NCBI RefSeq assembly: GCF_026210795.1
Contig: NC_089434.1
Location: forward strand, 2,356,001 to 2,420,000
Length of the DNA: 64,000 nucleotides
Direction: 5' to 3'
Source: Rhizophagus irregularis
Lineage: Eukaryota
The position numbers and the translations under genes were made by a program. Positions 3,590-63,106 of the stretch are shown in pieces (the stretch's first letter is position 1; each line of letters starts with the position of its first letter). The notes under the pieces are model-generated. The model searched no databases. It saw nothing but the letters and a program-made list of their open reading frames with translations, and was not told the origin of the DNA.

Positions 3590-5989
3590 ATGGGTCCAAA
3601 GAATGGAAATGCTTCTAATAGCAATATAGATTATGAAGATTCTGACGATCACGATATTTCTGATAATATAGATTTAAACAATGTCAAACTCAATACATTA
3701 TCTGCGAATGAGCAAGAAAAAGAAGGTATTACATATACATTTGTACGTTGTAGGATATGTATTCCATTATTCTAATTATTTTTGGTTTTTCTAATGTTAG
3801 ATGAGAGAATGTGGCAAGGGGTATGAAACTTTGATGAATCCAATGTCCAAAAAATTTCTTGTCATCTTTGATCCGATCCTGTTTAATATTCTATTCTATA
3901 GGTTCAAGCTTTTTTTTGCAATCGGTATACAGAAGCGCAGGAAATTTTTGCAGAAAAAGCAGATATTGATCCTTTATATGCCCTAGGTCAAGGGTGTATA
4001 TCATTTCTAAAAGGTAAGTTGATTAACCTAGTTATCATTACATTTATTAGTATTGTTTTTTAACATTTATTTCTTTATTTAGCGGTAACAACTTTTAACG
4101 AGCAGGATATTTCTATTGCAATTAAACAACTTGTTTCTGCAGAATCCTTAGCTAGCGCACAGATAGGAGCCTTTAAATCGCAATCAAGTATAGGATCAAG
4201 TTTCGGAAAGTTTATATCCAATTTAAATTACTTTGGAAATAGTAACAAGAATCAACAATTTATGTCAAATGGACAATTAAGAAGTACTGTTATTAAGGCT
4301 GAATCATTATTGTTGATAGCTCTTATTCAATTACTCCAAGAAAGTATTATTAGTTATGTAAAAGCAGGGTTGAACTTAAGACGAGGTAAATTAAATTATT
4401 TCTTATTTATTTATTTATTCTCTTTATTCATTGAATTTATACTACTAGGTTATAAAAACTACGAAATTGTGTGGAATGAAATTAATAAACCTGGCTTCAA
4501 TGTATCCGTGGATTATCATACTAAAGGGGGTGTAGAGTTTGGGTCGGTAATTTTTTGATGTAATTATGTTTTTATGTTGGCCAGATCTTTTTATATTTAT
4601 TAACATAATTTTGTTTATAATCTTTAGTTATGGAACATGTAATCTTGTACTTTCATTTATGCCTGGAAAAATTATAAAAATTATATCTGCTATAGGTTAT
4701 AGGGGGAATAAAGAATTAGGTATAGAATTACTAAACGCATCTTTAAAAGGAAGAGGGATAAGGTCGCCATTGGCATCTCTCTTGTAAGTTGTTGATACAT
4801 AAATTTCTATATTGCTACTTGACTTGTATGTTATTAATGTTCTTATGGACTGCAGATTTGTGACATCTTATACAATGCTGACTTCTTTTTCACCATCTAC
4901 TTTGGGCCCAGATAATGTATTTAATCCATATAAATATGTGGCATGAAATTTCATATTTATAATTAAGGTTTAATTCTTAAAATTGTTATACGTTTAGATA
5001 CCGAAAGCTGAAGAATATATTCAAGATGCTTTGAAACAATTTCCCGGATCTGATTTTTTTACTTTTTTCGCCGGCCGTAATCTCCGGCTCAAACGTGATT
5101 TGGATGCGTCTACCGAAGCATTCATATCAGTAAATCACAACCTAAAAGAAGGTTTTGGTGTCGAACTGAGACGTTTATGTGACTATGAATTGGGAATGAA
5201 CTACGCGATGACTTTACAATGGGGAAAAGCTGCACAATGTTTTGACACGCTTGCAACAGAGAACTATTGGAGTCCCGCGTTTTTCCGTTATTTTCAAGCA
5301 GCTTGTCTAGAAATGCAGGGGAAAAAGAAGGAAGCGATAGCTTTATACATAGAAGTTCCAGGTTTATCTGTTCGAAAATTTGGTGGTCGTACTATTCTAG
5401 TAGAACAGTATATTACACGTAAAGTAAAAAATTATATGGCGAAAAATTTTGAAAATACATTATTACCGGGTTTGGAGATTTTACTTATATGGAATAGTTT
5501 TGCATGTATGAAGAAAGAAGATTTGATCCGTTGTTTAGATATTGTTAATTCAAAATTGGACACTTTAAACAATAGCAATATAATTGATTCACAATGTATG
5601 CTTCTTCTTATCAAAAGTTCTATATTGAACCAGCTTCATCGATTTCAAGAAACGAATCAATGTCTCAGATGGATACTTGATCATAATGGTGACATAGTTG
5701 ATGATAAATTTATTGAACCATTCGCATTCTGGGAAATGGGAGTTGCCGCTTTTTTAAACGAAAATCTAGAAAAGGCTAAATTAGTATGGGAAGAGACTGC
5801 TAATTTTAATGGATATGAATTTGAATTTAGGTAATATGTAAAAAAAAACAAAAACAAAAAAAAAATTTCAAGCAAATTTTGTTTAACCATTCTTTTTATT
5901 ACAGGCTTGCAATGCGATTACATTTGTCATTAATGAAATTAAATGACATGCTTCCTGATAAAAAGAAAAAATCAAGAACTTTTATATAA
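3590..5989 (+). CDS. TTC39/IML2-family tetratricopeptide-repeat protein, about 9 exons (approx. 3590-3725, 3801-3820, 3902-4013, 4083-4385, 4449-4541, 4628-4783, 4856-4916, 4998-5830, 5904-5989)
   Basis: GT-AG introns join ORF pieces with family-typical motifs: SYVKAGLNLRRGY, GGVEFG..G.CNLVLSFMP.KIIKII.AIGY.G.KELG, C.YELG, YWS.AFF.Y, PFA.WEMG, GYEFE.RL.MRLH. Confidence 0.88.
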
Positions 5990-14042: not shown

Positions 14043-15799
14043 TTCTTGCTTTATCCTCTTTACATTATTTTATTCCCTGAAACTATATTCCTAAGTCTTA
14101 ATATTGGCATTATGAAATCTTACTATTATATGATGATATACGGTTTAAAAAAGTTTTACGAATGTAAAGATAACAGTTTAACAAGCTACATCAGGAATTT
14201 TTAATATGCAAAGTACTTTGTGAACTTTACATAATGTAAGAATTATATAGTATTTCGCAATAAGATTACAAAGTACTTCAGTGTACTATATAAACTTAAA
14301 TTTTGTAATATTTAAATATATTACATAGTGTAGCCCTACATAATATGCCAAAGTACTCTATAATTTTGTTAAAATGTATTTTTTCAAAATATTATAGACT
14401 GTAATTCAACATAAAATATCAAAGTACTCCATATTTTAATGTAATGAAATAAATGTAAAGCATAACTTTATGTGATATTCCATAACGTATTGTCAGAATT
14501 TTACATAGCAAAATTTTTGCCAATTTTTAAGTTTCACAAATCACACAATGTTAGTTCATCAGTTTAAGAAAAAAAATTGAATTGCTGAATAATTAAAACT
14601 TCTTCAATGTAAAAGATTTTAAATGAGTATTCTTTTAGACTTCAACTGAATTCTGGTCGAAATAGTTTTATTTTTATTTCTCTTACACACATTAACGACT
14701 GTTACTTTTTTTTCTTTAGGTATCATTTTTTTGATATCGGTACGGTGATGAATTTAGTTTTGCCTCTATTTAGTTTCTAACCTATAGGAATTCAACTGGA
14801 CAAGTAAGTTGCCACTTTTGTTTTATTTTCGTTTTTGTTTTAACTTTATACTAACCGATTCATTTCTTTTTTTAGACTTTACACAATTTTCTTAGATTTA
14901 CAACATCACAGGATTTTTGAAGTGTAATAGTCCTTCAAATGAAAAAATCAGATTTAGCTGAATTTTAATAAAGTGAAAGCAGAAATATTTTGTATAATCT
15001 TGCCAAGAAATTGAACAATTGCTAATTTTCCATTTAGATTCTAAATAAGGTATTGATGTCTTCGTCGTGTATATACTTATATGTATTGTACAATATTATA
15101 CTTGCTCATTATCACTTTTTCGTTATTATTCCTACTAAAAAAAAGGATTAAACAGAATCCTATTGTGAAAAAAATAGAGGTTTAAAATTAAGCTGGGTAT
15201 CAAGGTTGGTAGCAAATATGTAGATTCGATTTGAAGATTTAAAGAGCGGAATAGTGCTTTTTTATTAGTCATCAATCATTTAAATAAATAATTAGACAAT
15301 AGACTTAATGTCAATATCTGGGGTATGTCAAATGAACTTTTTTAATCGTGATTTATATACTAATATATTAACTCTTTGCCTGCTATTCGTCTTATTGCAA
15401 AGAACATGATTATCTTCAACTTATGATTTAACTAGGGAATATATGATACTCGAGCATTAAGGCATTGTGCAAATCCAGCATTTAATCAATATTACATTAT
15501 ATCATCGCATTTAAATTAAATAATTAAATTCTGATTCTAAAATAATTCCTTACTCCTTATTGTAATACAGATTTGATTAATGTAATTTTGATGACAAGAT
15601 TAAATTTTAATAAAAAATGACTTCTACTTTAAGAAGAAATAAACGTATAAAATATTTTAGTCATAAATAGCATTATCAAAAGTAACAGCAATTGGTAATT
15701 ATTAATTCGTAATATAAAAATAATTAAAATAATTATTATTTTTTATTAAACATATATATATTATTGTTTATAGAAACAAGATCAAAATTTAGATAACAC

Positions 15800-19346: not shown

Positions 19347-22300
19347 CATCAGGAAAGTTTTTGGGGTTTAGAACTGCAGAGATCTGTGAAATTAGCAGAT
19401 CTCCGCATTTTTTTGCACTTTTTTGACGCATTTCTGCGAAGTTCTGTGAATTTTGCAACTTTGCAGATAATTGAATATTTTTATCTATAAATCAGCAAAA
19501 TTCTGCAATTTTGCAGATTTCTGCAGATTTATTAGAAAAATTCTGCAGTAATCTTCGATTTTGCAGATTTTTGCTTTTATTTTTCATTGAAATATCAGCA
19601 ATTTTATCATTTTGATTAACTCTAATTAATTTAACACAATTGCCAGTTGGAGTAGAACCCCGAATAATACTAATATAACTCACAAATGATCGGCATGCAT
19701 TTACTACGATATTAACTCTACACAACTTTTTTTTCATAGTAACACTACGCAAATCCAAATCTTAGTTCAAAAAATTTTTGTTACTAATATAATTCGTTTC
19801 ACATTTTTTCTATTAGTAAGATATTAATAAAATCATGCGAAACTCACCATTTATTTGTTAAAATAGTGCGTTTCGCACTTTTTTATATTAAAATATTAAT
19901 AAAATGGTGCGAAACTCTCCATTTATTTGTTAAAATGGTGCGTTTCGCACTTTTTCTATTAAAATATTAATAAAATGGTGCGAAACTCTCCATTTTTTTG
20001 TTAAAATGGTGCGTTTCGCACTTTTTTATATTAAAATATTAATAAAATGGTGCGAAACTCTCCATTTTTTTTATTAAAATGGTGCGTTTCGCACTTTTTT
20101 ATATTAAAATATTAATAAAATGGTGCGAAACACTCCATTTTTTTTGTTAAAATAGTGCGTTTCGCACTTTTTCTATTAAAATATTAATAAAATGGTGCGA
20201 AACTCTCCATTTTTTTGTTAAAATGGTGCGTTTCACACTTTTTCTATTAAAATATTAATAAAATGGTGCGAAACTCTCCATTTTTTTGTTAAAATGGTGC
20301 GTTTCGCACTTTTTCTATTAAAATATTAATAAAATGGTGCGAAACTCTCCATTTTTTTTGTTAAAATGGTGCATTTCGCACTTTTTCTATTAAAATATTA
20401 ATAAAATGGTGCAAAACTCTCCATTTTTTGTTAAAATGGTGCGTTTGCACTTTTTTATATTAAAATATTAATTAAATGGTGCGAAACTTACCAATTATTT
20501 ATTAAAATGGTGCGTTTCAAACTTTTTTTTCTTAATAAAATGGTGCGAAATTCACCATTTTTTGTTAAAGTAGTGCATTTCGCACTTTTTTCCTATTAAA
20601 AAATATTAAAATAATGCGAAATGCATTACTTTTTGTTACTATATATCGGGGTCCTGTTGGAGTATATTTGTCAGTTCGTATTATTACAGTAATCATTACC
20701 AATCGGATATAAACCAGAAATCGATAAAGTTGATCAGACTAGTCAATTATGATTTGTGTGCCGAATGATAATCTTTAGCTTTAAAAAAAGTTTTTTTAAA
20801 AAATTTATCTTTTCTAATATTTTTTTTAGGTATCAGCGAGACTCTTCGCTTTGGATTGGTAAGTTTTGAAAGTTTTTCTTTCGAAACTGTTTTTTTAAAA
20901 GATTTTTTTAATATTTTTTTTATTTATTTTTTTAGGTATCAGTGAGACTCTTCACGGAAAGTTTCAAAAGTTTCATTCTTTAAACTTTCGAAACTTTATT
21001 TTTTAAAAAAAAATTAATATTTTTTTTATTTATTTTTTTTAGGTATCGGCGCCCTTCACATAAGTTTCAAAAAGTTTCATTCTTAAAACTTTTGAAACTT
21101 TCGTTTTTTAAAAAAAATTAATATTTTTTTTTATTTCTTTTTTTAGGTATCGTGAAACCCTTTCACGTAAGTTTCGAAAGTTTTTTGAAACTTCGTTTTT
21201 TTTAAAAAAAAATTAATATTTTTTTTTATTTCTTTTTTTTAGGTATCGGCGAAACCCTTTCATGGTAAGTTTCGAAAGTTTCATTCTTCAAACTTTCGAA
21301 ACTTTCATTTTTTAAAAAAAAATTAATATTTTTATTTATTTCTTTTTTTTAAGTATCGGCGAAGCCCTTTCACGTAAGTTTCGAAAGTTTCATTTTTTCG
21401 AAACTTCATTTTTTTAAAAAAAATTAATATTTTTTTTTTATTTTTTTTTTCTGTATCGGCGAAACCCTTAATGTAAGTTTTGAAAGTTTCGTTTTGAAAC
21501 TTCATTTTTTTTTAAAAAAATTTAATATTTTTTTTATTTTTTATTTTTTTTAGGTATCGGTGAGACCCTTCACTTTGCATCGGTAAGTTTCAAGAGTTTC
21601 ATTTTTTTGAAACTTTGATTTTTTTTTTAATTTTAATTTTTTTCTTTATTTGTAGGTATTGGTTGGGATCTTTGGAGTAGTAAGTTTTGAAAAATTTGTT
21701 AATTTTTTTCTTTATTTGTAGATATCGGTTGGCGGGGACATTTGGATGGTAAGTTTTGAAAAGAATCATATTCTTTTCAAAACTTCAAATTTTATTTTTT
21801 TTAACTTTATTTCTATATTTTGTAGGTATCGGTTGGGATTTTTGGATAGGTGAGTTTCGAAAAGTTTCGTTCCTTCTTTTCGAAACTTATTTTTTTTTCT
21901 TATCTTTATTTTTCTATTTTGTAGGTATCATCAGTTGGAAATTGGGATTTTTGAATAAGTGAGTTCGAAAAGTTTTGTTCGTTCTTTTCGAAACGTATTG
22001 GTTGAATAGGTAAGTTTTGAAAAGTATCATTACTTTTTAAAACTTTAATTTTTTTTTAATTTTCTTTCTTTATTTTGTAGGTATCGGTTGGCGGGAACAT
22101 TTGGATGGTAAGTTTTGAAAAGAATCATATTCTTTTCAAAACTTCAAATTTTATTTTTTTTAACTTTATTTCTATATTTTGTAGGTATCGGTTGGGATTT
22201 TTGGATAGGTGAGTTTTGAAAAGTTTCGTTCCTTCTTTTCGAAACTTATTTTTTTTTCTTATCTTTATTTTTCTATTTTGTAGGTATCATCAGTTGGAAA

Positions 22301-23530
22301 TTGGGATTTTTGAATAAGTGAGTTCGAAAAGTTTTGTTCGTTCTTTTCGAAACGTATTGGTTGAATAGGTAAGTTTTGAAAAGTATTATTACTTTTCAAA
22401 ACTTTAATTTTTTTTTTAATTTTCTTTCTTTATTTTGTAGGTATCGGTTGGAACCTTTGGAAATGAAACCTGTGGTAAGTTTTGAAAAGTTACATTACTT
22501 TTCAAAACTTCATTTTTTCTCAAAAAGTTTCATTACTTTTCGAAACTTTAATTTTTTTTTAATTTTTTCTCTTTATTTTGTAGGTATCGGTTGCAACCTT
22601 TGGAAACGAAACCTGTAGTAAGTTTCAAAAAGTTACATTAACTTTTCAAAACTTCAATTTTTTTTCAATTTTTTTTCTATATTTTGTTGGTATCGGTTGT
22701 GACCTTTAGATAGGTGAGTTTTGAAAAGTTTCATTTCTTTTTGAAACTTCAATTTTTTTTAATTTTTTTTCTAATGAAACTTTACTAAGGTATTCTCTTT
22801 TTGTAGGTCTATGACTTTCTGGGTGTTTCCTGAATGGAACTTCGAAGGTATTCTTCGAAGTTCTTTAAATTTTTATTTTTTTTAATAAAATTTTTTTTTT
22901 TAACAAAATTAATTTTTTCTCTTTTTTTTGTAGCTTCGCAACTTTTTAGATGATATCTGAAGAGAATTTTGAAGGTATTCTTCAAAGTTCTTTAAATTTT
23001 GGATGAATACTTTAGATATATGCGCTGTCAACGTCATTAAAATACATTTGAAAGATGATTATATTTTAATAAGTTGGCATATATTGGGTTTTTTTCTCAA
23101 TTTTTATATTGTATTTTATTAATTTCAGTTAGTTATATTTGAAATTCTTTAACTTTATAAATTTATTTAGCTATATTCAATTTTGCAATTTTATTTGACA
23201 AATTTATTAGTAAATAAAAATACATAATAAAAAATATAATATATAATGACTGTGACGATTAGTAAATAATTTATTTTTTTGTGAATTATTGCAGAACTTC
23301 GTTCTTGAATTTTTTCACAGAATTTTGTTCTTGAATTTCTTGCAGAACTTAGTTCTTGAAATTCTTTGCAGATTTAATTTTGAAGATTTTCGCAGAACTT
23401 TATTTTCTTGAAATTCTGCGCAGTTTTTGATGAATTTTTTTTTTCAAAGACTGCCGACAGGGTTGCAGATCTGCGCAAAAATGTCACCTGCAGATCTGCG
23501 TAGATCTGCACCCCAAAAAATTTCCCGATG
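19347..23530 (+). mobile_element. Non-autonomous CATC-ended TIR element (~4.2 kb) with satellite and micro-exon array, inserted into a GATATC-rich MITE (about 19243-23842)
   Basis: TIR CATCAGGAAAGTTTTTGGGG / CCCCAAAAAATTTCCCGATG, GCAGA subterminal repeats and a TT duplication. Confidence 0.82.
19790..20630. repeat. ~71 bp tandem repeat, about 11 copies (dimer of AAAATGGTGCG subunits)
   Basis: Directly visible head-to-tail units with no unique spacers. Confidence 0.9.
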
Positions 23531-35920: not shown

Positions 35921-38900
35921 TTACAAAGTACAAGCCAAAAAAATAAACCTAAACTTTTTTTGCTTCCCTTTGTCTTTATTACCACCTTGTTTCCATTTCA
36001 GACGTTTCTTTGAGACAATAGTATCGCTATTACAGCCACTACAATGTGGGTGTTCATCTTTTGTTACTCTATTGACGTCTAAGCTTCCACACTCAATGCA
36101 AACATCTGGGTAAATTCCGGCTGAGTAGTATGGTTTTTCAATTGGCGAACTACAGGACCATGAATCATTAACGAAAACTCTTGAAAATAACTCATATATA
36201 GAATCCTCAGTAGCATTATCAAGCTCTTTATCTATATCTATTTCAAATTCTTCATTTCTATTATCTAAGTCTTCTGGTTCGTTCTGTTCATCATTATTAG
36301 AAGCATCCTCCTTTTCCATATTTTCTTGATCATCCTCACCATTGTCTTCTGTAATATCATCACATATGTCTTGTTTTGGTGGAATAGCTATTGCCAAATC
36401 ATACGTATTATAAAATGACATACCGCAAGTGTAGAGTATTGTATCCAAAAATCCTTGAAGTATTGTCTTGTCTTTTTCAGAAAGTTTCTTTGCACTGAAT
36501 AAAAGACAAGGCTTCTCACATTCAACACAGCTTACAGTAATACCAACATTTTTTGCATGTACAGCAGAAGGGCAAAATGGCATAGTATGTTTTACTTTTG
36601 TTGTTTTCATCTTTTCTTTTGTTTTTTTGACATTCTTAAGCGAAGGTCTATGATCTTCCGTTGTTTGTTTACCATACAACTCTTCAAATGATTTATAATG
36701 CAAATCATCTCCAGGTACTGGATCCAGAAGTCTATGCAATTGTTCAAAATCTTCAGGCAAACAACAAGGAAGACGGCAGATGGTGCAAGTAGATTCACCA
36801 CATTTTTTGATTGTAAAAGAGTAATGTCTTGCAGTACAACAATGTTCTATGAATTCTTGTAGAAACAACTTCAAACAAAGGTTGTTAATTTAGTTTCTTT
36901 TTATGCAGGTATAAACTCAATTGATATTTAATACTTACCCTTTGTTTTATATGTTCTGCAGTATGGTCCTCATGGGTAACGCTATCATCCACAAGCTGAA
37001 TTGTTTCCCAGAATTTCTCCATTTCTATTTCTGATGCTGCAGTAAACGTTTTAAAGGGTTAGCTTTTAAGAGATTGGTGGTTGAATATATCATTAACCAA
37101 ACAGATCGGAGATTGAAGACTATCAATGAGATCTTCTTTCAAGGTAGGATTCTCCATGGCAATTTTGCGGATTTCATTCATTGTGCCACATTTGCTTATT
37201 AATTTCTCTGATTCATCATTCATTTCAGCTCGCATCAAGCCAACACTTTGCAATCCTAAATTTAAAATTGACATTATATGCTCAACAGGATTTTTCCATG
37301 AATGTTGTGGAGGAGTTTGAACGGCAACAAAATAATCAAGATCTAATGCAAGAAAAAGGCAAATATATGAAAGTTGGACACGGGCATATGTGCATCGGTG
37401 ATCTGGTCCACCATCAGTGTAGAGGCATAGTACAGGCTTATCAACAAGCTGTTCTTCAAGAAGTATACTATATAATTCTGTTGCATGTCGAAGAGGTGAA
37501 GAAGGCTGAAAGATTGGATCCTTTAACCCAATGCATACCTTTCCTGCATAGAAATCAATATTGATTGATTCAGGTATATCACATATCATTGCTACACTTG
37601 GTATTATTCCTGTTTTAGTGAAATCATGATCAGCAACTATGAATGTAGTGTCTTTACTAAGGTTGCTTGCCGAAACCTTCTTAATAACTGCCAAAACCTA
37701 TACGGAAAATGCCAAAACTATATTAAATCATATTAAAAATCCTGCCGAAACTTTACCGAAATGCTGAAACTCCCATTTGCCGAAACTGCCAAAACCCTGC
37801 CGAAACTATAGTAAACATATAGTAAAATCTTGCCGAAATTTATCGCAGGATTTTAGAGAGGTTTTGGCAAGCAACCTTAGTCTTTACTTACTACGACCTT
37901 CTTTCCTCTTTCTACTGCAACAACAGGAAATCCGGGTTCTCCAACTTTGCAACGGTGCTTGTCATCCAAAAAGACTAAATTTGTAATTTTGCGAAATTTA
38001 ACAGCAAATTCCTTTTCATAGCGAAACAATGCCGATGCATAGTGGATATCAGGATGAGAAGCCCGTAATTGCCGTGTTTGAACCATAAATTTTAAAGGTA
38101 AAAGATCAGTGAATTGTAAACTACTAAGTCGAGTTGGGTTTTTAGACCAAAATTGTAACTGCAACCATTGTGCACTAGGGATTGGTGTTTCAGGTGGGCA
38201 TTCACGCTCTATTTGGTGTAAAAGATCATTTACTGAGATTGCAGTAGCAAGATGTACAATTGTATCATGTCTACGTTCATCTACAGCAGTTACAGCATCT
38301 GCTGCCTTTCCTTCAAGAAACTGAGCTGCGATTTTCCAGAAAGTATCATATTTGCTAGGTTTTCCACTATTATGTTCACGTAGATTAATGGTGATATCTG
38401 GATCTCCAAGCTCCAAAAACATTTTAACACGTTCATTAACTCTTGCTTCATTTGCTGTTTCAGCCGCTGAGACATCTCCTGTTAGCATTCTATAGATTGT
38501 TCGAAATGATGATAGCTTGGCCTTTGGAAGAAGCAATTCACATGTACGTAGGTAGTTTATCCGCATTGTTCGTGTATGATAACGAGGTGCATTAGCTTGT
38601 AGTTGACTTACAATCTGTTTATTCTCTTGCAAAATCTTTATTTCAGTAGCTTGTTCATCGATTTTCCATATCAAGATTGCATTAAAAGCATTGTTTCCTG
38701 AGTTGAATTAGTACTCTCCAATTTCGTAGGTAAATGCATGAGATAAGCCCTGAATGTAACGCATTCTTTGCCTACATTAATTTATTCATTAATATCATAT
38801 ATTAAATATTTTGAGAATATTATTTTTTTTACTTACATAGGATCAGTTGGCAAGTATTCTTCAATATCAACTGGTTCCCATGGTAGTAAATCGATGAGAG

Positions 38901-39850
38901 ATTGTTCAAGATGATAATATTTATTCTTATCAATAGGTGTTATCCAAATATTCTTCTTATAAACTTTTATTGTTGTTACTTGATTAATAGTTCGTATAGG
39001 AATTTCTGATGCATGATTCTTAGCAGTAATATCACGTTTATGTTGCAGAAATATAATATAATTCGAAATAACAATAATGAAATCATCAAGTACATCACGG
39101 AGCCAATTAAAGTTTTCTCTTAAGATCCATGATAATGTAACATATGGAGCAAGAGCTTGACAATGCAAGTTTAATTCATTTGCATCAAAGGGTTTTTGTG
39201 ATTGCTTGTATGATTCTGGATTTGCGCGACTAAAAAACTCAAGGAAAAGCTTAGGTATGTGATAATTTCGTTCTTCTAGTTTCTTATGATCATGCATATC
39301 GATATACCAAATTGTTTCTGTTAAGCTAACAATAAATTCCTTTCCTTGCGTGTCAGCACATAATTTAGTGGGCCACCCACTGCCATGACTGTGGATCCAA
39401 TCAACAATATCATTACGCAATTTTTGCTTACGATTTACCTTTTCTGACTGTGGAAATGTTGGCAAATGCAACTGGAATTTGTGTGCATTTTGCATCAAGA
39501 TTGTAAATCCGTTTGATTGTACTTGAGTAGCTTCAGTATCATCAGATTTTAGTCGATAGTGTAAATGTATTCCTATATTTCTGGTAAGTTCTATGATATT
39601 ACAGTTAATACTGACTTGAATTGCAATGCTGGTTGGTATTTCACTTAATTCAACACGTTCTATTTTTTCAGAACTTGTTACGGCAATATTGCATTCAGAG
39701 GATAGTTTCTTATTAACTAGCTTTGTAAAAAAATCTTTTATTGACATTTCACAAGAAATAGGATGGATGTACCATCCATGGAGTATTCTTATCCCTTTAG
39801 AGATGCGAGTATTTACAAGTAGCATGTTCAAAAAAAAGGTATTTGTAAAA
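35921..39850 (-). pseudogene. Zator/TP36-like DDE transposase with introns near 38772-38834 and 36872-36938, interrupted by a MITE
   Basis: Motifs FLDDKH, ADHDF, YTDGGPDH and PPQHSWKNPVE; Cys-rich C-terminus; stop codons and the insertion at 37658-37879. Confidence 0.75.
37658..37879. mobile_element. 222 bp hAT MITE (inverted copy of 26940-27161)
   Basis: Same TIRs, 8 bp TSD GTCTTTAC. Confidence 0.92.
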
Positions 39851-41375
39851 GATTTGGAGAAAATACATCTTTTCGCGTTTTTTTATATTTAATAATGTAT
39901 CGCGAATTTGCTATAATTTTATTTCTATTAGGGGCGTAGTCTCAAAAAGGAAAGCTGAGTAATTGACCGATTTCCAATATAATAGTATATGCAAGACTCA
40001 TATTACTTTATATAAAATAACAAAAAGGGGTTATATTTTCATTTTTTTTTCTATATATAATATTTTATCCAAATGATTTCCCACGCCAATTCACCAAAGT
40101 AATTCTGCTTAACTATAAACTGTTCATTACCTGAATGAAAACTCGAAAATTAACTTGATATATATAAATATACAAATATATTGATTTATTATAATAAAAG
40201 TTTATACGGAATATAGTTAATAAAGAATCAATATTAATAATATTAACATGAAATTTTTGATTGGACGTCAGATTGTGGAACACATGACTAAATTTTATTG
40301 GTTAAAAAATTTTTATCCTTAGAAATAAAAATCCGGACGGCCGGGTCAAATCAAATAAATTTTGTTATGAGAACCAATTTATTTATTTTGTGCCGCCTAA
40401 TGAAAAACGTTAGGTTTAACATTTTTAACTAAAAAAAAAATTTTTTTATATATCTTTTAATAAAAAATATCAGATCTGACGTTTTTCATTAAAAAAACTT
40501 TTTTTTTATTTAATTTAATGAAAAACATTAGATTTGATATTTTTAGTTAAAAAAAACATTATTTTATGTTTCTTTAACTAAAAAAAAAGATTTTTCAATG
40601 AAAAAACATCAGATTTGACATTTATAATTAAAAAAAACTTTTGTTATTTTTTTTTAATGAAAAATGTCAGGTTTGACATTTTGATTAAAAGAAGACGTAT
40701 TTTATTATTATATTTAATGAAAAACATCAGATTCAGATTTTGGCATTTTTTATATATAAAAACATCAAAATGTTTTTTTTTAACCCAAAATATATCGAAT
40801 CAACAGATTGGGTCAGGTACCCAATTGTAATTAACCTGACCTGAGATCAGGTTATTAAATTTGCTACTTGACCCGAATTTTTTGGATCAACCTGTTAGGT
40901 CATCCGATCTGTCAAGTTAAATTCGATGTTCTAGCTCAAGTATAATTTGGAAAGAAATTATAGTTGAATATCAACTATCTTTTATAAGATGATTAAACTT
41001 AATGCTTTTTTAATATTATTGAATAGCATTAGAAATGCAAAGAATATAACATCAGCTTCATAATACTAGTTGATATAAAGATGTCAAAAAATTCAAGAAT
41101 ATTGTTAATTGTGATTGAAAAAAACTTTTATATCAGTTTAATGAAATTATTTTTTTGAAATATGATATGATGAGAATCTGAAAATTATGATTTCTTAGAA
41201 GATATATAAAGTTAAAAAATATATTGATTAAAAAGACTTTAATCTTTTAATATATATATATGGTTTATATAATAACTCAATATCATGTAGCTAGTACTTG
41301 AATTTGTAATTGTATATAATTTATATGTTTTTAAAAAAATGAATTACTCAAAAGATACAATAAAAAATTCTTTAA

Positions 41376-48172: not shown

Positions 48173-51100
48173 TAAAGTTGCTTGCCAAAACTAGAAGGTT
48201 TCGGCGGGATGGCATATGTGAAACTGCCGAAACTAGTTTCACAAAATTGGTCTAAAATGTTGAAATGCCGTAACTGCTGAAATCTGCCGAAACTGTCTAA
48301 GCTGCCGTAATTATTTTGGCGTAGTACATCATATGATATACATATAGTTTCGGCAATATTATGAATTATGATTATTTTTGGCATGGATTTTTTTTTTGAC
48401 ATAATGCCGTATTCAGCCGTATTGAATTTATATAGACGTAATTGCCAAAATTTGCTGAATTTATCGAATTGTCAATGATTTACGCCAATCCGGCACAGAA
48501 AAGTTATATTATCAGACAGATTGCGTATTATAAATCATCTGATGATCTTTTTTTTCTTGTACCGGACAAAAATTATGAGGTAAAGAAAAGAGGAGGTCCA
48601 ACCAGAAAGTTTTTATTTAAAAAAAGTAATAGTTTATTTTTCGTTTTGTAGGGTTGCCGGACAAAAGCACGACTGGACTTTTTGAAGTAAGAAAGGACTG
48701 GAAAAGGATCCATTTTAATAAATTTATTTATTTTTTCTTTATTGTAAGGTTACCGGACGAAAAACATGACCGGACTTTTGAAAATGAGGTAAGGAAGGGT
48801 TGAGGGAAAGGTTTTTCGTTATTTTTTATTTTAATAAATTTAACTAATTTATTTTTTTCTTTTTTGTAGTGTTGCTGGACGAAAAACATGACTGGACTTT
48901 GGAATTTAGGTAAAAGAGGGGGCTGAGGAAAGGTTTTTCGTTGTTTTTTTATTTAATAAATTTAACTTATTTATTTTTTTCTTTTTTGTAGTGTTTTCGG
49001 ATGAAAAACATGACCGGACTTTGGGATTTAGGTAAAGAAGGGGCTGAGAAAGGTTTTTCGTTGTTTTTTTATTTAATAAATTTCTATTTTATTTTTCTTT
49101 TTGTAGTATTGCCGGACGAAAAATATGTACAGTGTAAACGGTCGAATATCAAGCACGAGAAGATGATAAAATTCAATCACCAAATGTAATTGCCAAATAT
49201 TAAGAACGAACAAATTAATTATGAATTGGCGTAGATGGATAAATAATTAGCCGAAAAGGATAAACATTTAAGAAGAGCAATGATCTACATGATGTAATAT
49301 TTATCGGATGATTAACAAAGAACCAATAGAATAATTAGAGTCGATCAATTGCGGCTTAGCAATCTTTAACAATAAGAACAATTAGAAAGAATAATTATAA
49401 GCCACAAAAGGTAGATCATATAAAATGGAGGGATAGCGGACTAAAGGAACACGCATAACGAAAGTACATACATTCATTCTTATGTTTTATTATTTCTTGC
49501 GGACATTTATCTTTCTTTCTTGAAAAATCTTCATTTAATATTTCTTTTATTTTAAAGATTTCTAAAAAATTCATTCTTAAATTTTATTGTTTTGAAGATA
49601 AACTTCTGATTACAAAATTTACAATATATCTTAAATTTTACTTCCATAAATAATAATATAAAAAGATAGTGTAAAGATGGAACATAAAAAATAGCATATT
49701 AAAAGATAGCGTATTTAAAATATAGATAGCATATTAGAAAGATAGTTCAAAGATAATATGTAAAAAGAACATAAAAGATAGTATATAGATAGAATAGAAA
49801 GTAGCATAAGATTTGTATAAATAGAGAGCGGAATTCAAAGTAATTCCACAGTTCTCATCCACAGAACTCAATAAAAATATAAGTTTTATTTAATTATTTG
49901 TTAGTAAAGTTTAATATTAATTAAAGGTAATAGGTTCGCCCTAAACTTTAATTAATGTTCGCTTAATTAATTTTAATTGAATAAAATGGAAATTTAAGAT
50001 GAATTAAATATACACTTTTGGAAAGTAATAATTCGTAGCGAGAGCTATTGAAGTTTGAAAGTAAAAGTAAAAAGTGGATATAATTTGGGGAAAATTTAGA
50101 GAAGTTAACTTTTATTTTATATTCATCAGTAATGTTTTAGGAGTCAGGATCCACGTGAAATCCTTATTTTCTGTAAATAGTAAAGATTCGCGTGGATCCT
50201 TCCCCACCTCAACGGATCCTTGGAATTAAAAAAGTTTAAAGAATCCCTAAGGATAGGAAAGAATCCTTAGGGATATTTATTTAATTTTTATTAATAGATT
50301 ATTTATTGATTTTTATTAAAATCTATTTATTAATTTATATATTTAATGTGTATTTATTTATCTTTAATATTATTGTATATATTATGTATTTCTCCAGTTA
50401 ATAAAAATAAAACAATAATTTAAATATAAAATACAAAAACAACTAATAAATAAAGTTAAAAAAAAATAATTATGTAAGTTTCACAATGAAACTTATTGCT
50501 TTTCCTTAATTCTTCAGTTGATATCCAGACAACCTGAAAAAAATTAAACATTATTTAACGCTTTTATTAAAAAGGAAGCAATTGAAGTTTCGCAATGAAA
50601 CTTACCTATTATTAAATTATTTTCTCTCTAATCGATACCCCAGATCATGGTATAATGTCAATAGCGTCATTTGATTTTGAAGCAGGAGGGTTATCGATCC
50701 TAATTGCTTGCATGGCTTTTACAATATCTGGGTGATTTCCAATTGAAAAAGTATCAATCTGTTCGTGGATTCACTAATAGCTGATCTATAGCAAGCGATA
50801 GTATTCCCCTATTGAAACCTACTCGTCGAAAAAAAAGAAAAAGATTGAAACGTTAATAAATGTTTTATTAAAATAAATAATTTAAAGAAGCCTTCACTTA
50901 CCAAGTTCCCACACGTCTAAAGAAATCAAAAGAAATGGCCATCTAAAAAGAAAAAAATCAAACATTAGTAGATATTTTGCTACAGTAAAATAAAAATTTA
51001 AATAATTCCCCACCAGTTTCTAACGCGTTAATGACCCATTCCATCTAAAGAAAAGAAAAAATTGAATTTTTTTGTTTTCAATACACTTGTTGAAACAACT

Positions 51101-53576
51101 TATAGTGCGTGTCTAATACTGAAATTAATCTGAAAGATGTCATCTTCGATATCTTTTTTCCTTTGCCATTATTCTGTAAGTATTTTACGTCCAGAGATAT
51201 TTAAAAAAGAAACGCCTAAAAAAAATGAAAATGAGCAGTTAGTAATGCTCGTTAATATAAAAAAATCTGAAATAACTTCTTTTTTTGTTACTTACCGGTA
51301 TCCAAGTTGAAAAAAACACCTAAAAAAGAAAAAAAATGAACATTTAGTATTCGTCAAAATAAAAAAAAAATTGAAAAAAATTTTTTATGAAACTTACTGG
51401 TATCCCACATCAAAAAATTCCTAAAAAAGAGAAAAAACAAACAATTAGTAATGTTCGTTAAAATAAACAAAAAGAAAAAAATAATTTTTTTTACATACCG
51501 GTATTCCGTGAAGAAGCTCAAACCCACCTAAAAAAAGAAAACGAACAGTTGGTGATGTTCGTTAAAATAAATAAAAAGAAAAAAAATAATTTTTTTTTCT
51601 TACTTGCCAGTATTTCACGTCCAAAAAAGTCTCAAAATCACCTAAAAAAGAAAAACGAACAGTTAGTAATGTTCGTTAATATAAAAAAAAATGAAATTTT
51701 TTTTGTTTACTTGTAAAAGTCCTATTCGAATATCCAAACCCAAAAAAGAAAAAATAGAATAGTTAATAATATTCATTAATATGAAAAAATGAATAATATT
51801 TTTTTACTTGCCGAAATCCATGTTCAAGTACCTGAAAAAAAGGATGTCTAAAAAAAGGAAATAAAATGAAACATTAGTTAAGGCAACATATCATTAAAAT
51901 AAATAAAAAATTAAAGTGTAAGCTTACCGAAATGCCACATGCAAAGGAAATCTGAAAGAACCTAAAAAGAAAAGACCCGACCGTCTAAAAAAAGAAAAAT
52001 GAAAATGAAACATTAGTTAATGTTTCGTTAAAATAAAAAAAATTGTAAAAAAAAACTTGCAGCAAGAAAATCTGAAAGAATCGTCTAAAAAAAAGAAACA
52101 ACTGTTAGAAACCATTCATTAAAAGAAAGGAAAAAAAAGTTTAAAACTTACCAGAATATCACTTTCAAAGTAATCCAAAAGAACCGTCTAGAAAAAAAAA
52201 ACAAAAAAATGAATTAGAACCTGCTCATTAAAAGAAATAATTAAATATATAAAAAAAAACCTTACCAAAATCTGACTGCTGACTAAAAAAATAGTGGAAC
52301 ATTATTTAATGTTTCATTATGGATTTTGTAGAGAGAGGGGAAAGAATAGGGTAAAGAAATAGAACGAGAAAGGAAAAAGGTGAGAGAGGGAATAAAGACG
52401 AAAGTTTTGTAAAAAAAAAATTCCATATCAAGATATCAGATGATCGATCATTAAACATTAAGATTATAACACGTGATACACGTAATTTTTTAATTTTAAA
52501 ATAAAAATAAAATTTTTTAAAGATTTAGATATAAGGAATATATAAGGATTTTTTATATGGAATCTTTAAAGAATCTTTAAGGATCTGTAAACTTATAGAT
52601 TCCTTAAGGGTATTTTACAAATCAGTATGGATTTTTAAAGAATCCATAAAATTACAGATCCTTAAGGATTCTAAAGCAATTTATGGAATCTTTAAGGATC
52701 CATATTCCAAAAAATTTACTGATGTTGCTTGATGTTTTATATTACTAACGCTATTTATGTTGTGAACCAAAAATGTTGCTATATGTTGTTGCAGGTTGTT
52801 CGTTGATTATGTTGTTATTAATTATGCTGTTGATTATTTGTTTGTTCGTTTATTTGTTCGTTTGTTCGATTATTCGTTCGTTCGACCATGAGAAAGCCCG
52901 TTCGATGTGGCAACTCTGTAAATTGATGACAGAGGGAATTGGGGGATCTCAACGGATTTATAAATTAAGGTAAAGGAGGACTGGTGAAAGTTTTTCGTTA
53001 ATTTTTCATAATTTATGAAAAACATGACCAGACTCTTAAAATTAAGGTGAGGGGGGTCGGAAAAGGTGTTTTCATCATTTTTTTTAATAATTTAATTGAT
53101 TTTTTTTTCTTTTTGTAGGATTGTCAGATGAAAAAATATAACCGGACTTTTGTAATCAAGGTAAAGTACCGGGAGAAGTGTTTCGTTATTTTTTTTTTTT
53201 TGATAAATTTAATTAATTTATTTTTTTTTATGTAGAATTCCCAGAAAAAAAATCACAACTGTTGCATTTGTTAGAATTTTTTCAATAATAATATTATTAT
53301 TAGAATATTACAACGTTGTTTATTTACATGTAAATTTATTAGAGACTGAAATTAAAAATAAAATATTTGGAATGCTGTAATTATGCCGAAATTCATATAA
53401 AATATTATTATTTATTATGCCAAAACTACGGATAAACTTGTTATAAAGGTTTCACAAATTTTGGCAGTTTCACAAGTTTCGGCAGTTTCGCAGTTTCGCA
53501 GTTTCACAGTTACAGCACTATATGTAGAGTTTCTCCTTTCGGCATTAGGCCAAATAGGTTTCGGCAGGCAACCTTA
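48173..53576 (+). mobile_element. Non-autonomous hAT element related by TIR to the 222 bp MITE; carries micro-exon units and nested inserts
   Basis: TAAAGTTGCTTGCC / GGCAGGCAACCTTA, TSD GCGCTGGA / GTGCTGGA; the flanks join up to match the uninterrupted copy near 19010. Confidence 0.85.
50124..52724 (-). mobile_element. Non-autonomous CATC-ended element with a minus-strand micro-exon array
   Basis: TIR CATCAGTAA.. / ..TTACTGATG, GGATCC/GAATCC subterminal repeats and TT on both flanks; absent from the host copy at about 42920. Confidence 0.8.
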
Positions 53577-56699: not shown

Positions 56700-57144
56700 T
56701 AATATAACAACAAACATCTTACCAATATATCCATTAAGTCTCTCATATGAAAAAAGCCAAAAACTATATATGGAACCATAGTCATAAGCTCACAGCAACA
56801 GTCAGAAATATGAAGTGCAAGGTATATGTTGCTTGTTATAAATTCTGGCCCATATGTTCTTTCTATAAGGTGAGCCATGTCCTTCAATCTCTCTTGCGCT
56901 TTTCTCAGATCATCTTCTGTAATAAATCTTGCTACTAAAAGATTCAGTTACATGCTTGAACAAAATGTCCTAAGATTTTTCTATTATTATTATCTAACAT
57001 ATCCCATAGTATAGGCGTGGAATAAATCATAATAAAGGTTTTCCATTGATCAGCAGTTAAATTTGAAAAACCTTCATTTCCAATTGCAATCTTTGGGGGA
57101 TTCTACCGATATCAGAAAATAATTCAATATAATCCATTCTCTTT
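56700..57144 (-). pseudogene. CMC (EnSpm/Mirage-like) transposase fragment
   Basis: SDIGRIP.KI..G..GFSNLTADQWK.FI.IY...ILW, YGPEFIT.N..L.LH..DC and YG..YSFWLFSYERLNG; frameshifted. Confidence 0.78.
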
Positions 57145-60100
57145 TATCAGGAAATTTTTTAAGATGCAGAACTGCGGAGATCTGTAAAATTAGCAGATCT
57201 CCGCATTTTTTTTGTGAATTTATGCGGAAGTCTGTGATTTTGCAGATTTCTGCTTTTTATTTTTTACAAAGTTATGCAATAATCTGCAATTTTGCAAGTT
57301 TCCGATTTTTTATGTATTAATTTCTGCGGTAATCTGCGATTTTGCAGATTTCTGCTTTTTTTTATGTGAAATTTATGCGAAAGTCTGCAATTTTGCAGAT
57401 TTTTGCTTTTTTTTCATTAAAATATCAGTTCGATCTGCAATCTCATCATTGATTTAATATTTAAACTTTAATTAACTCTAACTTGATTTAATACCTAAAT
57501 GATTTTTTCTACAATACTCTTTAAAAAAAAAAAACTTTACAAGACTTTAAAAAAATAATTTTTTCTACAACACTTATTACTAAAGAAAAAAACTTTGTGA
57601 AATAATTTTTCTACAACACTTTTTAGGAAATAATCTGTTAAAAATTTTAAAGAAAAAATATTTCTATTATTTTTTAAGCTTCGAAACTTATCAGAGAAAT
57701 TTTTTTTTTAAAAAAAAAAATTTATTTGCAAGGTTCGGAGTCTTTAAGGCAAATTTGTCCAACATTTGGCACATAATCTGCAACATGCAGGAAAATTAGA
57801 ACCAAAAAAAGGAGTCGTATTCCTTTTTTTCTTTGAAAAAAAAAATTTTTTTTTAATGAACGTCAGTTAACGTTCAGTTTGTAAGTCAAGAACATAATAG
57901 AGTCTATTGTCAATTTAATTTGGAGGTATATCACCTCTGAAACTTTAATTATTTTAGAGAAAAAAAAAATTTTTTATATTATATAGGTTCCAGATGGAAT
58001 CTATCGATGATTTTAGTTGGAATTCGGAGGTATGCTTACCTCCGAAATTTAATTTATTTTTTTAAAAAAAATTTTTTTTTATATTATATAGGTTCGGATA
58101 GAACCTATCAGATATTGGAATTCAGAGGTATGCTTACCTCGAATCTTAATTAATTTTTTTTTAAAAAAAATAATTTTTTTTATATTATATAGGTTCTGGA
58201 TAGAACCTATCAAAGATATTGGAATTCAGAGGTATGCTTACCTCCGAATCTTAATTTATTTTTTTAAAAAAAAATAATTTTTTTTATATTATATAAGTTC
58301 CGGATGGAACCTATCAAAGATATTGGAATTCGGAGGTATGCTTACCTCTGAATCTTAATTAATTTTTTTTTAAAAAAAATAATTTTTTTTATATTATATA
58401 GGTTCCAGATGGAACATCAAAGATATTGGAATTCGGAGGTATGCTTACTCTGAATCTTAATTAATTTTTTTTAAAAAAATTTTTTTAATTTTTTATTATA
58501 TAGGTTCCAGATGGAACCTATCGAAGATATTGGAATTCGGAGGTATGCTTACTCTCCTGAATCTTAATTTATTTAAAAAAAAAATAATAATTTTTTATTT
58601 ATATTATATAGGTTCTGGATGGAACCTATCGATGATTTTGAAATTCGGAGGTATACTAACTTCTGAATCTTTAATTTATTTTTTAAAAAAAAAATAATTT
58701 TTATTATATTATATAGGTTCCGGATGGAACCTATTGATGATTTTTGGAATTCGGAGGTATGCTTACCTCCGAATCTTAATTTATTTTAAAAAAATAATTT
58801 TTTATTTAACAAACGCCACTAATGTTCGTTTTTCATATTTTTGCTCCCAAGCTAAAGTACGGCTCCGGACATTTTTTTTTAATTAAGTTATCTAACGAAC
58901 GTTGCTAACGTTCGATTATAGATCCTGGACACTGAAGAACGGTTCCAGACATTTATTTTGAAGGTAAAACCTTTACCTTCAAAATTTTTTTTTATATTTT
59001 TGTTTAACAAACGTCGCTAACGTTCGTTTTTTATTTTTTTTAGGTCCTGAACGCCAAAGTACGGCTTCGGACATTTATTTCAAAGGTAAAATTTACCTCC
59101 AAATTTTTTTTATTTTATTTATACCTACGAACGTTAATTTACGTTCGTTTTTACATTTTATAGGTCCTGGACGCCAAAGTACGGCTCCGGACGTTAATTT
59201 CGAAGGTAAAACCTTTACCTTCAATTTTTTTTTTATTATTATTTAACGAACGTTAATTAATGTTCGTTTTTATATTTTATAGGTCCTGGACGCCAAAACC
59301 AGCTCCGGACTTTACTTTGAAGGTAAAACCTTCGAAAAAAAAAAATTTTTTTTTGTTAACTTTATTGACGAACGTTAACTAACGTTTCGTCTTATTTTTT
59401 TTAGATAAAAGAAGCCGAAACTGAGTTTCGGGTTCCTATATCAAAGGTAAAACAAACCTTCGAATTTTTTTTTCTTTTTATTTAAACGAACGTTCACTAA
59501 CGTTCATTATTCTTTTTTTTTAGGTAAAGGAAGCCGAAAGAACTTCCATATCAAAGGTAAAATCTTCGATTTTTTTTTTATTATTTTATTTAATGAACGT
59601 TACTAATTCTAACGTTCATTTTTTACTTCAGTATTACTGCACCGTACGAAACCGAAAGGCAGGTTCCGGTCTCCTATTTTGAAGGTAAGGCTTCAAAATT
59701 TCATTTTACTTTTTTTCTTTTATTTTAGCGAAAAGTTTACTAACGTTTCATTTTTCTTTTTGTAGGACTACGGCATTCCGGACGCTTTGTGGGCTCCATT
59801 TCGAAGGTATATTATCCTTTATATTCTTCGAAAGTGTTTATTTTTATTAGTTTTTTTTACAAACGTTAACTAACGTTCGTTTTCATTTTTGTAGGTCCAA
59901 GACGCCGAAAGTACATGTCTCGGATTTAATTTCGAAGGTAAATAACTTCGAAAAAAAAGGAGTCTCTTTTTTTTTTAACGAACGTTCACTAACGTTCGTT
60001 TTTCTCTTTCTTTGTACGCTGAAGGACTTTAATTTCGAAGGTAAACTTTGATTTTATTTTTATTTTTTATTTAATTTTTTTTTGTTTATTTTAAGGAAGC

Positions 60101-61782
60101 GTTATTAACATTTCAATTTTCTTTTTTTAGGTTTCTGGCTCTCCTGAATTCTCCTGGACGGAATTTCGAAGGTATTTCTTCGAAATTCTTTTATTTTTTT
60201 TATCTTATTGTTGTAAAAGAACGTTTTTAACATTCTTTATTTTTTTTTTTTAGATTTTCGGCTCTCTGGTTTCAGCCTGGACGGAATTTTCAACATGGTT
60301 AGTTTCGTAACGAACTTTTCGTTACGAAACTATTTTTTTTTTATTTTATTTAAACGAAACGTTACTAACGTTTCGATTTCTTTTTCTTTTGTAGGTTATC
60401 CGGTAGCCACCTGGATTGGATGGGATTTCGAAGGTGAAACTTCGAAATTATTGTATTTTCATTTTTTATTTGAACGAAACGTAAACTAACGTTTCGATAT
60501 TATTCTTTCGTAGGTTGGCGGCTTCCTGTAACCCTTCTGAAAAGAATTTCGAAGGTATACTTCGAAATTCTTTTACTTTTTTTATTATTTGTGACGAAAC
60601 GTTACTAATTTTTCAGTTTTCTTTTTTTTTGTAGTTTGACGGCTTCCTGTGAACCTTTCCGATTACAACATTCAAAAAGAATCCACTCTTCCATCTTTCT
60701 CCGTCTTCGTGACGATATGCAAATTTTTGTTAAAAAACTATTACTTTGGAAGTTGAGTCTTCTGGAATGAATTTTGAAGGTAAACTTTGAAATTCTTTTA
60801 CTTTTTTTGTTTTTTTATTTGAACGAAACGTTTACTAACGTTTCAATTTTCCCTTTTTACGGCTGTCCAGATGCCTTCTGGATGAAATTTCGAAGGTAAA
60901 ACTTCGAAAAAATAATTTTTTTTGTTTTATTTTAACAAATGTTTATTGACGTTTGTTTTTATTTTTGTAGATCCAGGATGCTGCCGGACTTTCATATCGA
61001 AGGTAAAACCTTCAAAAATTATTTTTTATTAATTAATTTATTGACGAACGTTAACTAACGTTCGTACATCTTTTTTTTTAGGTAAAGGAAGCCGAAAGAC
61101 AAGTTCCGGACTCCCATATCAAAGGTAAAACCTTCCAAAATTATTTTTTATTAATTTATTTGACGAACGTTAGTAACGTTCGTATTTCTTTTATTTTAGG
61201 TCCTGGGTTCCCATTTAAAGAACTTCAAAAGTAAATACTTTGAAGTTTCTTTTTTTTTTACTTCTTTAACAATCGTTATATTAATGATCATTTTTTCTTC
61301 TATGTTTAGGTCCCAGACTGCTGGGTTAGATATTTCAAAGCTGCTTGCTTCGAAATTTTTTTTCGTTTGTAGGTATCCGTTGTTCGTTGGAATCGAACCA
61401 ACTGGAACAATATCCAAACTATTAACAACATGTAAATGTGCAGTAAAGAGATGATGAATAGCAAGTATCTAGTAATAGATTTCAATTGTATTTGTAAACT
61501 TGTTAATATATAATAAAAAAGTAATTTTGATTATATAAATAAATTAGTAATTAATGCAATAAATTAATTTGTATTATTGTGACGCAGATTTTTACTGAAA
61601 AAAATTGCTGAGGTATTTCGAAGGTTTTTATTTAAAAATCTGCGCAGAACTTTGTTATTTATAAAATTTGCGCAGTTTTTTATTGGATTTTTCCTCTAAT
61701 GTTTTGCGCCAGGGTATAAAATCTGCGCAGATATAATTTCTGAAAATCTGCGCAGATCTGCTCCCCAAAAAATTTCCCGATG
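57145..61782 (+). mobile_element. Non-autonomous CATC-type element (~4.6 kb) with the longest micro-exon array
   Basis: Ends TATCAGGAAATTTTTT / CCCCAAAAAATTTCCCGATG match 19347-23530; no TSD match on the right. Confidence 0.75.
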
Positions 61783-62310
61783 GATAATGAGAGAGTAAAA
61801 ATGATGATGAAAAAATATAAAGGAACGAAAAGATGATGAAAGAGTGAAAATGATGATGAAATAACATAAAGGGATGAAATATATGATGAGGAAGTGAAAA
61901 TGATGATGAAAAAATGTAAACAAATAAAATAGATGATGAGGGAGTAAAAATGATGATGAAAAAGCATAAACAAACAAAATAGATAATGAGGGAGTGAAAA
62001 TAATGATAAAAAAACATAAACAGATAAAATAGATGATGAAGAAGTGAAAATGATGATGAAAAAATGTAAAGAGATGAAATAGATGATAAGGGAGTAAAAA
62101 TGATAATGAACAAACATAAACAAATAAAATAGATGATGAGGAAGTGAAAATGATGATGAAAAAATGTAAAGAGATGAAATAGATGATGAGGAAGCGAAAA
62201 TAATGATGAAATAATGTAAAAGGGATGAAAGGATAATGAAGGAGCAAAAGTAATAATAAAAGTATAAAAGAAACAAAGTGAAAGTGATAAGAAAGTGATG
62301 ATAAAACAAA
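61783..62310. repeat. ~50 bp GATGAT-rich tandem repeat
   Basis: AAATAGATGATGAGGRAGTGAAAATGATGATGAAAAAA units, about 10 copies. Confidence 0.85.
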
Positions 62311-63106
62311 GAGAAAGCAAAAGGAATGATATAAAGAATAAAAAGAATAAAAAACTGATTAGTATTGTAACTACTATTTAGTAATAAAAAAACAATAACA
62401 ATAAAACAGTAAGAAAGCAAACCTTACCTTAAATTCCTTGAAACTATTTGAAATTATTGTTATCTAAAGAAGACGAAGTTAGCAAAAAGCAAGCAAAAAA
62501 AATAAAAAAAATTTATTTTCAAAACAAAAATATTTTAACGTGTAAAAAGTGTGTAGCATGAAAATCACCTGTGAACTTTTACGGGGTAAAATTAAAATTT
62601 TAATAATTTGCAGATCAAGGTGAAATTCACCAGAGGTAAATGTAAAATTAATCCTATTTTTTATTATTTTTTTAGGTATTGGTGAGACCCTTTACTTTAA
62701 ATTAGTAAATTTCAAAAATTTCATTTTTTTGAAACTTTAATTTTTTTTACTTTTTTTTAAAAAATTTTTTTCTTTTATTTTGTAGGAATTTTTGGGAATA
62801 ATAAGTTTTGAAAGTAATATTTACTTTTGAAACTTTATTTTTTTTTATTTTGTAAATATCGGTTGTGATCTTTGAAATCATAAATTTCAAAAAAAAAAAA
62901 TTCTTTTCAAAACTTCAATTGATTTTTTTAATTTTTTCTTTATTTTATAAATATCGGTTAGAACCTTTAGGCAGAATAGTAAGTTTTGAAAAGGATCATG
63001 TTTTTTTACAACTTCAAATTTTATTACTTTATTTTTATACAGACACATCAGGAGTCAATTATAACAATTTTAATATGATCACGTGTTAGTGCATTAAAGT
63101 ATATAA

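Follow-up and report, generated by a model that had tools for sequence, protein, structure and literature searches.

Why would a DNA transposon carry dozens of minute intron-like pieces whose splice signals are predicted to fold into hairpins? This question is raised by a 64,000-nucleotide, AT-rich stretch of DNA from Rhizophagus irregularis, a root-symbiotic fungus (contig NC_089434.1, positions 2,356,001 to 2,420,000; hereafter the window, to which all positions refer), in which about 28 exon-like and intron-like micro-units stand in tandem inside such an element. We give an even chance to the reading that the transposon gives rise to a non-coding RNA dense in introns, with local hairpins that are predicted to throttle its splice sites. 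The anatomy behind this reading is well supported by the sequence, and the architecture is real, recurrent and apparently undescribed in DNA transposons of mycorrhizal fungi.

The array was found where the original prediction had placed it but proved slightly wider, reaching from ~57926 to 61330, and 28 donor-like sites were parsed between 57926 and 61231. It consists of two consecutive unit families, A and then B. The exon-like and intron-like pieces measure 36-43 nt and 61-69 nt, respectively, in family A, and mostly 31-53 nt and 75-97 nt in family B. Within the units the signals are arranged canonically as GT, poly-U, CTAAC, poly-U and YAG, over a host-like intron length (63-85 nt in the host gene TTC39), as expected from their sequence for U2 spliceosomal introns (GT, YTRAY branch, U-tract, YAG). 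A CTAAC or TTAAC branch motif is present in 14 of 17 family B introns, a few family B units have lost their donor or acceptor, and family A (57926-58790) has neither a branch palindrome nor a clear branch motif. The exon copies are related to each other as well (identity 0.85 versus 0.57 after shuffling in family A, 0.60 versus 0.52 in family B), and because of this homology the units are best read as tandem duplicates of exon plus intron, not as inserted introns.

Structure at the splice signals was assessed by RNA folding. The donor window ran from -14 to +26, z-scores were calculated against dinucleotide shuffles and a stem was called at z < -2; counts per family cover 8 family A and 17 family B units. 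A stem was detected in 23 of the 28 donor windows (mean -10.0 kcal/mol; family A 8/8, family B 13/17). Branch windows folded in 11/17 cases in family B and in 0/8 in family A, and acceptor windows in 6/8 cases in family A (5/8 on re-shuffling) and in 0/17 in family B. Family A therefore combines donor with acceptor stems and family B donor with branch stems, so that both intron ends are covered, by different means. The family A donor lies within a stem in which GTA is paired, and its acceptor AG lies within a second stem (ATAG|GTTCC..GGAACCTAT). In family B the exon end TTCGAAG pairs with CTTCGAA immediately 3' of GT, and the CTAAC motif is located inside an AACGTT..AACGTT stem; the predicted branch A lies paired within the stem. 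The stems continue into arms that are truly inverted and not palindromic.

These results bear out the original prediction that donors are embedded in inverted repeats: four of the five hairpins quoted there are present as written (~58023, 60544, 61043 and 60355). The quoted TTCGAAGGT-aaa-ACCTTC hairpin is a composite of near-identical units that do exist (~59316 and ~60996). Loops of 1-2 nt, as had been drawn, are impossible; most loops measure 3-5 nt, with a spacing between arms of 3-13 nt overall. The claim that branch motifs occupy the centre of palindromes holds for family B but not for family A.

Stems were absent from all eight introns of the host gene TTC39/IML2 and, at any site, from the four introns of a hAT-transposase gene in one of the metagenome loci described below (L053), in agreement with the earlier remark that they are not evident in the host introns. 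The TTC39/IML2 exon of the window has 100% identity to a protein of R. irregularis. The TTC39 intron model used as control reproduces 598 of the 599 residues of annotated protein P0001; its intron at 4543 has an unusual GTCGGT donor, which is required for the match to that protein. The branch palindrome pattern gave 16 strand-matches at 10 places in the window versus 0.03 expected, and the donor hairpin pattern 16 versus 0.18, both counts exceeding those in shuffles by two orders of magnitude. The median cost of opening the U1 site was 7.4 kcal/mol in family A and 7.2 kcal/mol in family B versus 3.4 kcal/mol in host introns, and that of opening the family A acceptor was 7.3 versus 3.2 kcal/mol in the host.

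The original prediction had also stated that the arms change together between units. This applies to family B, in which a unit's own arm scored higher than a swapped one at donors (7.24 versus 6.26) and at branches (6.41 versus 5.21), but family A showed no co-variation (6.56 versus 7.10). When branch arms were swapped within arrays, the own arm was better in 58 of 71 arrays and worse in 11; after collapsing CpG decay and removing the units matched by the search pattern described below, it was better in 37/45 and worse in 6. Compensatory double changes at CpGs numbered 11 versus 2.2 expected (10 loci) and 7 versus 1.8 (5 sources), with non-compensatory CpG doubles at or below expectation. A 32-unit alignment contained 22 two-sided cells versus 9.5 (reached in 0 of 500 shuffles). 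The arms thus change together, an observation that cannot tell RNA-level selection from DNA-level template switching.

The architecture is not confined to the window. A scan of soil metagenomes with the branch-hairpin pattern yielded 124 stretches from an estimated ~260, and 121 loci (L numbers) were analyzed; their AT content and homology suggest that they are from Glomeromycota. Because the loci were chosen by this pattern, 101 of the 407 units left after de-duplication are circular as evidence for branch hairpins and were tallied separately; intron chains were scored blind to hairpins. Chains of at least three such introns were present in 72 of the 121 loci, and the chained introns, including those of the window, totalled 521 versus 0, 11 and 4 in three locus shuffles and 4 on the reverse strands. 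The other 49 loci are without a chain, and several of them are unrelated chance matches (for example L017, L028 and L072). When only the hairpin served as anchor, YAG was the first AG for at least 317 of 342 hairpins, in most cases 21-28 nt from the branch A, and 284/342 hairpins had a donor-like site upstream, versus 68/361 on the minus strand. With pattern-matched units removed, a YAG followed 18-34 nt downstream in 142 of 175 hairpins and a donor-like site preceded 137 of 175, so that the anatomy fits the 'structured introns' of the original prediction. The register in which the donor is masked differs between families, and loops vary in length, as is more readily explained by structure than by a fixed protein-binding site. 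The branch pattern had no match in viral contigs.

What is conserved does not include a reading frame. Exon lengths fall into the three classes modulo 3 at 153, 137 and 129 of 419 exons, less-decayed copies included, and because they keep no frame the product is likely to be non-coding. The longest ATG frame in the predicted spliced product is 82 aa, and a search of Rfam with 57000-62000 gave eight weak matches, all far below the gathering threshold.

The array occupies the interior of a 4.6-kb DNA transposon, non-autonomous and bounded by terminal inverted repeats (TIRs), whose parts are listed in Table 1 with other features of the window. This setting is absent from the original prediction.

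Table 1. Positions of the array, of the element that contains it and of related or control features in the window.
Feature	Position	Strand	Remarks
Host TTC39/IML2 gene (control)	3726..5904	+	Eight introns, splice signals free of hairpins
Second element of the same TIR family	19347..23530	+	2-bp TT duplication; empty-site copy nearby
hAT-like non-autonomous element	48173..53576	.	Duplication of 8 bp (one mismatch); empty site close to 19000
Left TIR	57145..57164	+	Decayed copy of CATCGGGAAATTTTTTGGGG; alignable to the left ends of L066 and of the 19347 element
Left subterminal repeats	57165..57441	.	GCAGAT-type, ~50-bp period
Array leader	57773..57925	+	20-nt block in common with L002, then branch-type hairpin ~57857-57878 (read by eye); candidate first exon
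Family A	57926..58790	+	8 tandem copies, period ~104 bp, 85% matches
Family B	58850..61330	+	~20 units, each ~120 bp
Conserved terminal block	61372..61432	+	Common to L066 and L049, also in L054, although internal arrays differ; candidate last exon or cis-element
Right subterminal repeats	61580..61762	.	TCTGCGCAGA-type
Right TIR	61763..61782	-	No target-site duplication recognizable for this copy

The TIRs recur in dispersed copies (57145/61782, 19347/23530 and 72/4007 of L066), with single ends in L005, L049 and L054 and a third, solitary left end of this CATC-TIR family at 45868 of the window. Locus L066 is a 3.9-kb relative, ~80% identical over 60425-61431, of which both ends align with the array element, as do those of the element at 19347, and the flanks read AA/TA at the ends. 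Subterminal repeats of the GCAGAT type adjoin both TIRs of the array element. A 50-bp satellite (61783-62261) directly abuts the right TIR, which is possibly why the target-site duplication is not seen. The element at 19347 contains an unrelated micro-exon array (~20830-22990) with donor stems starting from +3, 13 of 18 at z < -2, and 62670-63050 holds a short, decayed array belonging to that family. A further array at 11750-14950 (+) has branch stems of another sequence (GAACAGTT/AACTGTTC; 9/12 at z < -2) and donor stems that cross the exon end.

Arrays also occur in elements of another kind. The hAT-like element holds three of them, at 48560-49130 (+), 50500-52300 (-) and 52970-53240 (+). 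In the metagenome, arrays adjoin open reading frames (ORFs) for hAT transposases in L071 and L053 (Pfam support) and in L075 (by eye), and an ORF with DUF7869 in L064. In L071 and L064 they lie on both sides of the ORF and point inward; the flanking arrays and the ORF would belong to one element, these contigs ending before any termini. The AACGTT branch stem is common to hAT-linked and CATC-TIR elements. The observed/expected ratio of CpG is ~2 in the arrays. The 15 CpGs lost from the window copy, versus 6 from that of L066, are as expected for a methylated, decaying copy, which the window copy is likely to be. Transposons of R. irregularis carry CG methylation, which is low in some young hAT copies, according to the part of PMC8647823 available to us. 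A large, broken transposase-like gene is located at 35921-39882 (-), for two frames of which (ORFs at 37062-38707) Pfam gave no match. A decayed ORF fragment at 56702-57140 (-), broken by the left end of the element, presumably resembles an EnSpm/Plavaka-type transposase; Pfam found no family for its part 56702-56947.

Several results weigh against hairpin-throttled splicing. Within the loci, a stem was found in the short window for only 114 of 407 donors. The cost of opening the U2 site at family B branches differs weakly from that in the host (4.6 versus 2.5 kcal/mol; p 0.09, not significant), and the GT of host introns is no more unpaired in the ensemble than that of the arrays, so that host and array differ in stability rather than in mere pairing. 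Swapping donor arms gave a modest signal, with the own arm better in 53 of 83 arrays and worse in 27. In the 32-unit alignment neither the pairs with two-sided change (7 versus 5.4; 82 of 500 shuffles) nor further pair types (333 of 500) exceeded the shuffles. RNAalifold, which had been proposed as a check, recovered the donor helix but returned a covariation term of 0 and missed the branch helix, the latter because an extra pair puts some units out of register. The ratio of G-U to A-C mismatches was 32:14 at donors and 26:38 at branches, showing no consistent preference; the exon control motif of this test is confounded by the family consensus. The orientation of arrays is outward in L075 and L033 and inward in L071 and L064.

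Degenerate arrays point the same way. L066 (600-1700) contains tandem ~45-bp units of the branch-type hairpin alone, with no donors or acceptors, and L049 (60-780) units with an acceptor only, in which poly-U TAG and a short exon are not accompanied by any donor. Such acceptor-only units, seen also in L022, L024, L060 and L073, are possibly fields of alternative 3' splice sites. An RNA run compared with 57400-58770, which covers family A only, gave nothing but low-complexity matches, 97% of 547 reads running on into unlike sequence; it contained no recognizable spliced read or contig and was uninformative about splicing. Against the same region the sequence sets X18 and X6 gave AT-rich chance matches only, and none of the 15 joints among those listed (57400-58770; X18, X3, X6 and X14) has GT..AG ends. 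Sets X3 and X14 contain variant contigs that are unspliced, as many as 37 of them at a single exon-edge position in X3; this hints at numerous copies in the genome, although no copy number can be derived from it.

On the reading that we favor, the array region is probably transcribed and spliced. The chances are about equal for and against the next step, in which the stems would be kept as they slow recognition of the U1 site and of the U2/3' site, the nascent RNA loading many spliceosomal complexes and being spliced slowly or variably. More tentatively, the transposon might benefit by staying transcribed and being less silenced by RNA interference (RNAi) and CG methylation, as an RNA-level counterpart of VANDAL motif arrays. 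Because the order of signals and the stems, and not exon sequence or frame, are conserved across unrelated families, the act of splicing itself would be the selected function. A bolder generalization, which we regard as doubtful, is that several DNA transposon superfamilies of arbuscular mycorrhizal fungi independently evolved 'spliceosome-loading arrays', that is, frameless micro-exons between introns locked at both ends, with slow splicing as the job of the RNA and as a disguise as a host gene against RNAi and CG methylation.

Alternatively, the introns could be real and the hairpins a by-product of events on DNA, with template switching homogenizing the arms, hairpin-aided slippage amplifying the units, and no selection on RNA structure. 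Template switching between inverted arms, an established mechanism, also yields compensatory double changes, and would give those observed here. The absence of a consistent G-U over A-C bias and the hairpin-only tandem run of L066 agree with such an origin, as do the many other palindromic repeats in this genome's transposons; moreover, TTCGAA and AACGTT are self-complementary, so that a repeated palindrome yields part of each stem. It does not predict, however, that stems fall on donor, branch or acceptor in several unrelated families while family B acceptors (0/17) and family A branches (0/8) are free of them, nor that introns of a transposase ORF lack them (0/4), and beyond the palindromic core the arms are truly inverted. 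We consider this explanation rather unlikely.

It is less probable still that the CpG-centered palindromes are dense sites, in the introns of a non-coding transcript, for a transposon-encoded anti-silencing protein or transposase of the VANDAL/VANC kind. VANC21 binds short motifs that tandem repeats have accumulated in introns and in non-coding terminal parts (PMC5735166, in the part available), and the mirror-orientation arrays around the hAT ORF in L071 and the CpG excess would suit such sites. Against such sites, the arm spacing varies from 3 to 13 nt and the arms co-vary in sequence, the AACGTT stem shared between hAT-linked and CATC-TIR elements is not element-specific, and no accessory gene was found in the window or the loci.

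Of similarly low probability is the converse of protection, namely that the hairpins stall spliceosomes, mark the RNA for production of small interfering RNA (siRNA) and so limit the element's own activity, as proposed for Cryptococcus transposons. Stalled spliceosomes serve in the recognition of C. neoformans transposon transcripts (as cited in the accessible part of PMC5495518), 79% of the small-RNA loci of G. margarita overlap transposons (accessible part of PMC7082362), and the convergent arrays at the L071 and L064 ORFs could yield double-stranded RNA. Arrays are not always convergent, however, and it would be more difficult for several transposon families each to retain a self-silencing device on their own.

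Very improbable is a remnant of a transposon-carried, protein-coding micro-exon gene for a repeat protein: several exons of 33, 36, 39 or 42 nt are open in frame, but exon lengths are uniform modulo 3, an exon-bearing 92-aa frame had no relative among proteins of 50-161 aa, and frame-preserving exons with a protein product were not found. Introner-like elements inserting as introns, as the original prediction had suggested, can hardly account for the array, for although its introns are short, structured and similar in sequence like fungal introner-like elements (available part of PMC8469720), exons were copied along with introns, intron ends pair in only 3 of 25 cases with no end-to-end symmetry, TIR or target-site duplication, the units lie in tandem inside transposons and not dispersed in host exons (none in TTC39), and the seven Glomeromycota rows seen of PMC9860276 list none for R. 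irregularis, R. clarus, Gigaspora, Diversispora or Glomus cerebriforme.

We found no description of such arrays in the literature, and Repbase, Dfam or supplements may hold them as unnamed consensus repeats; the words 'intron', 'splic' and 'hairpin' are absent from PMC8647823, as far as that text was available, and 'hairpin' from PMC10234402. A large part of arbuscular mycorrhizal genomes consists of transposons, some of which stay active under RNAi and CG methylation. If hairpin-throttled splicing is right, the conserved product of these elements would be splice signals, not coding capacity, and splicing kinetics would be tied to transposon silencing. The hundreds of natural stem variants could then be used to ask whether introns protect from silencing or trigger it. 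In addition, the interior of a transposon may lie behind many-exon 'orphan' gene models in these fungi, a warning for annotation.

How does the array compare with known systems? We take the element to be similar to non-autonomous CMC/CACTA (EnSpm) transposons, with short TIRs starting with CA, subterminal repeat fields, internal tandem arrays and, in one copy, a 2-bp duplication. Unlike these, its terminus reads CATC and not CACTA or CACTG, no transposase was found for it and no ORF inside it, and its internal arrays consist of splice-signal units. At tau exon 10 and at TSL2 of SMN2, a stem over the U1 site weakens use of the donor; those stems are single sites in coding genes, whereas here dozens stand in tandem. 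Intron richness is also known from Crypton genes of Glomeromycota, which are coding (PMC13465315, in the part available). Fungal introner-like elements and the sister (stw)introns of Hypoxylaceae are likewise short, similar U2-type introns with a stable predicted structure, but, in the available parts of PMC8469720 and PMC9860276, they are dispersed in host genes and symmetric end to end; in the array the stems are local and cross the exon boundary, and the units are in tandem. The spliced transposon long non-coding RNAs of Blumeria hordei are, likewise, non-coding, intron-containing and proposed regulators of transposons; they are antisense to coding parts, and no tandem micro-exon arrays or splice-site hairpins are noted for them in the accessible part of PMC10648671. 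VANDAL21/VANC21 of Arabidopsis resembles the arrays in having tandem units in the non-coding parts of a DNA transposon, with dynamic copy number and co-evolution; however, as far as PMC5735166 was available, its arrays are 9-bp DNA motifs bound by the encoded protein, whereas the unit described here is an exon plus an intron with paired splice signals.

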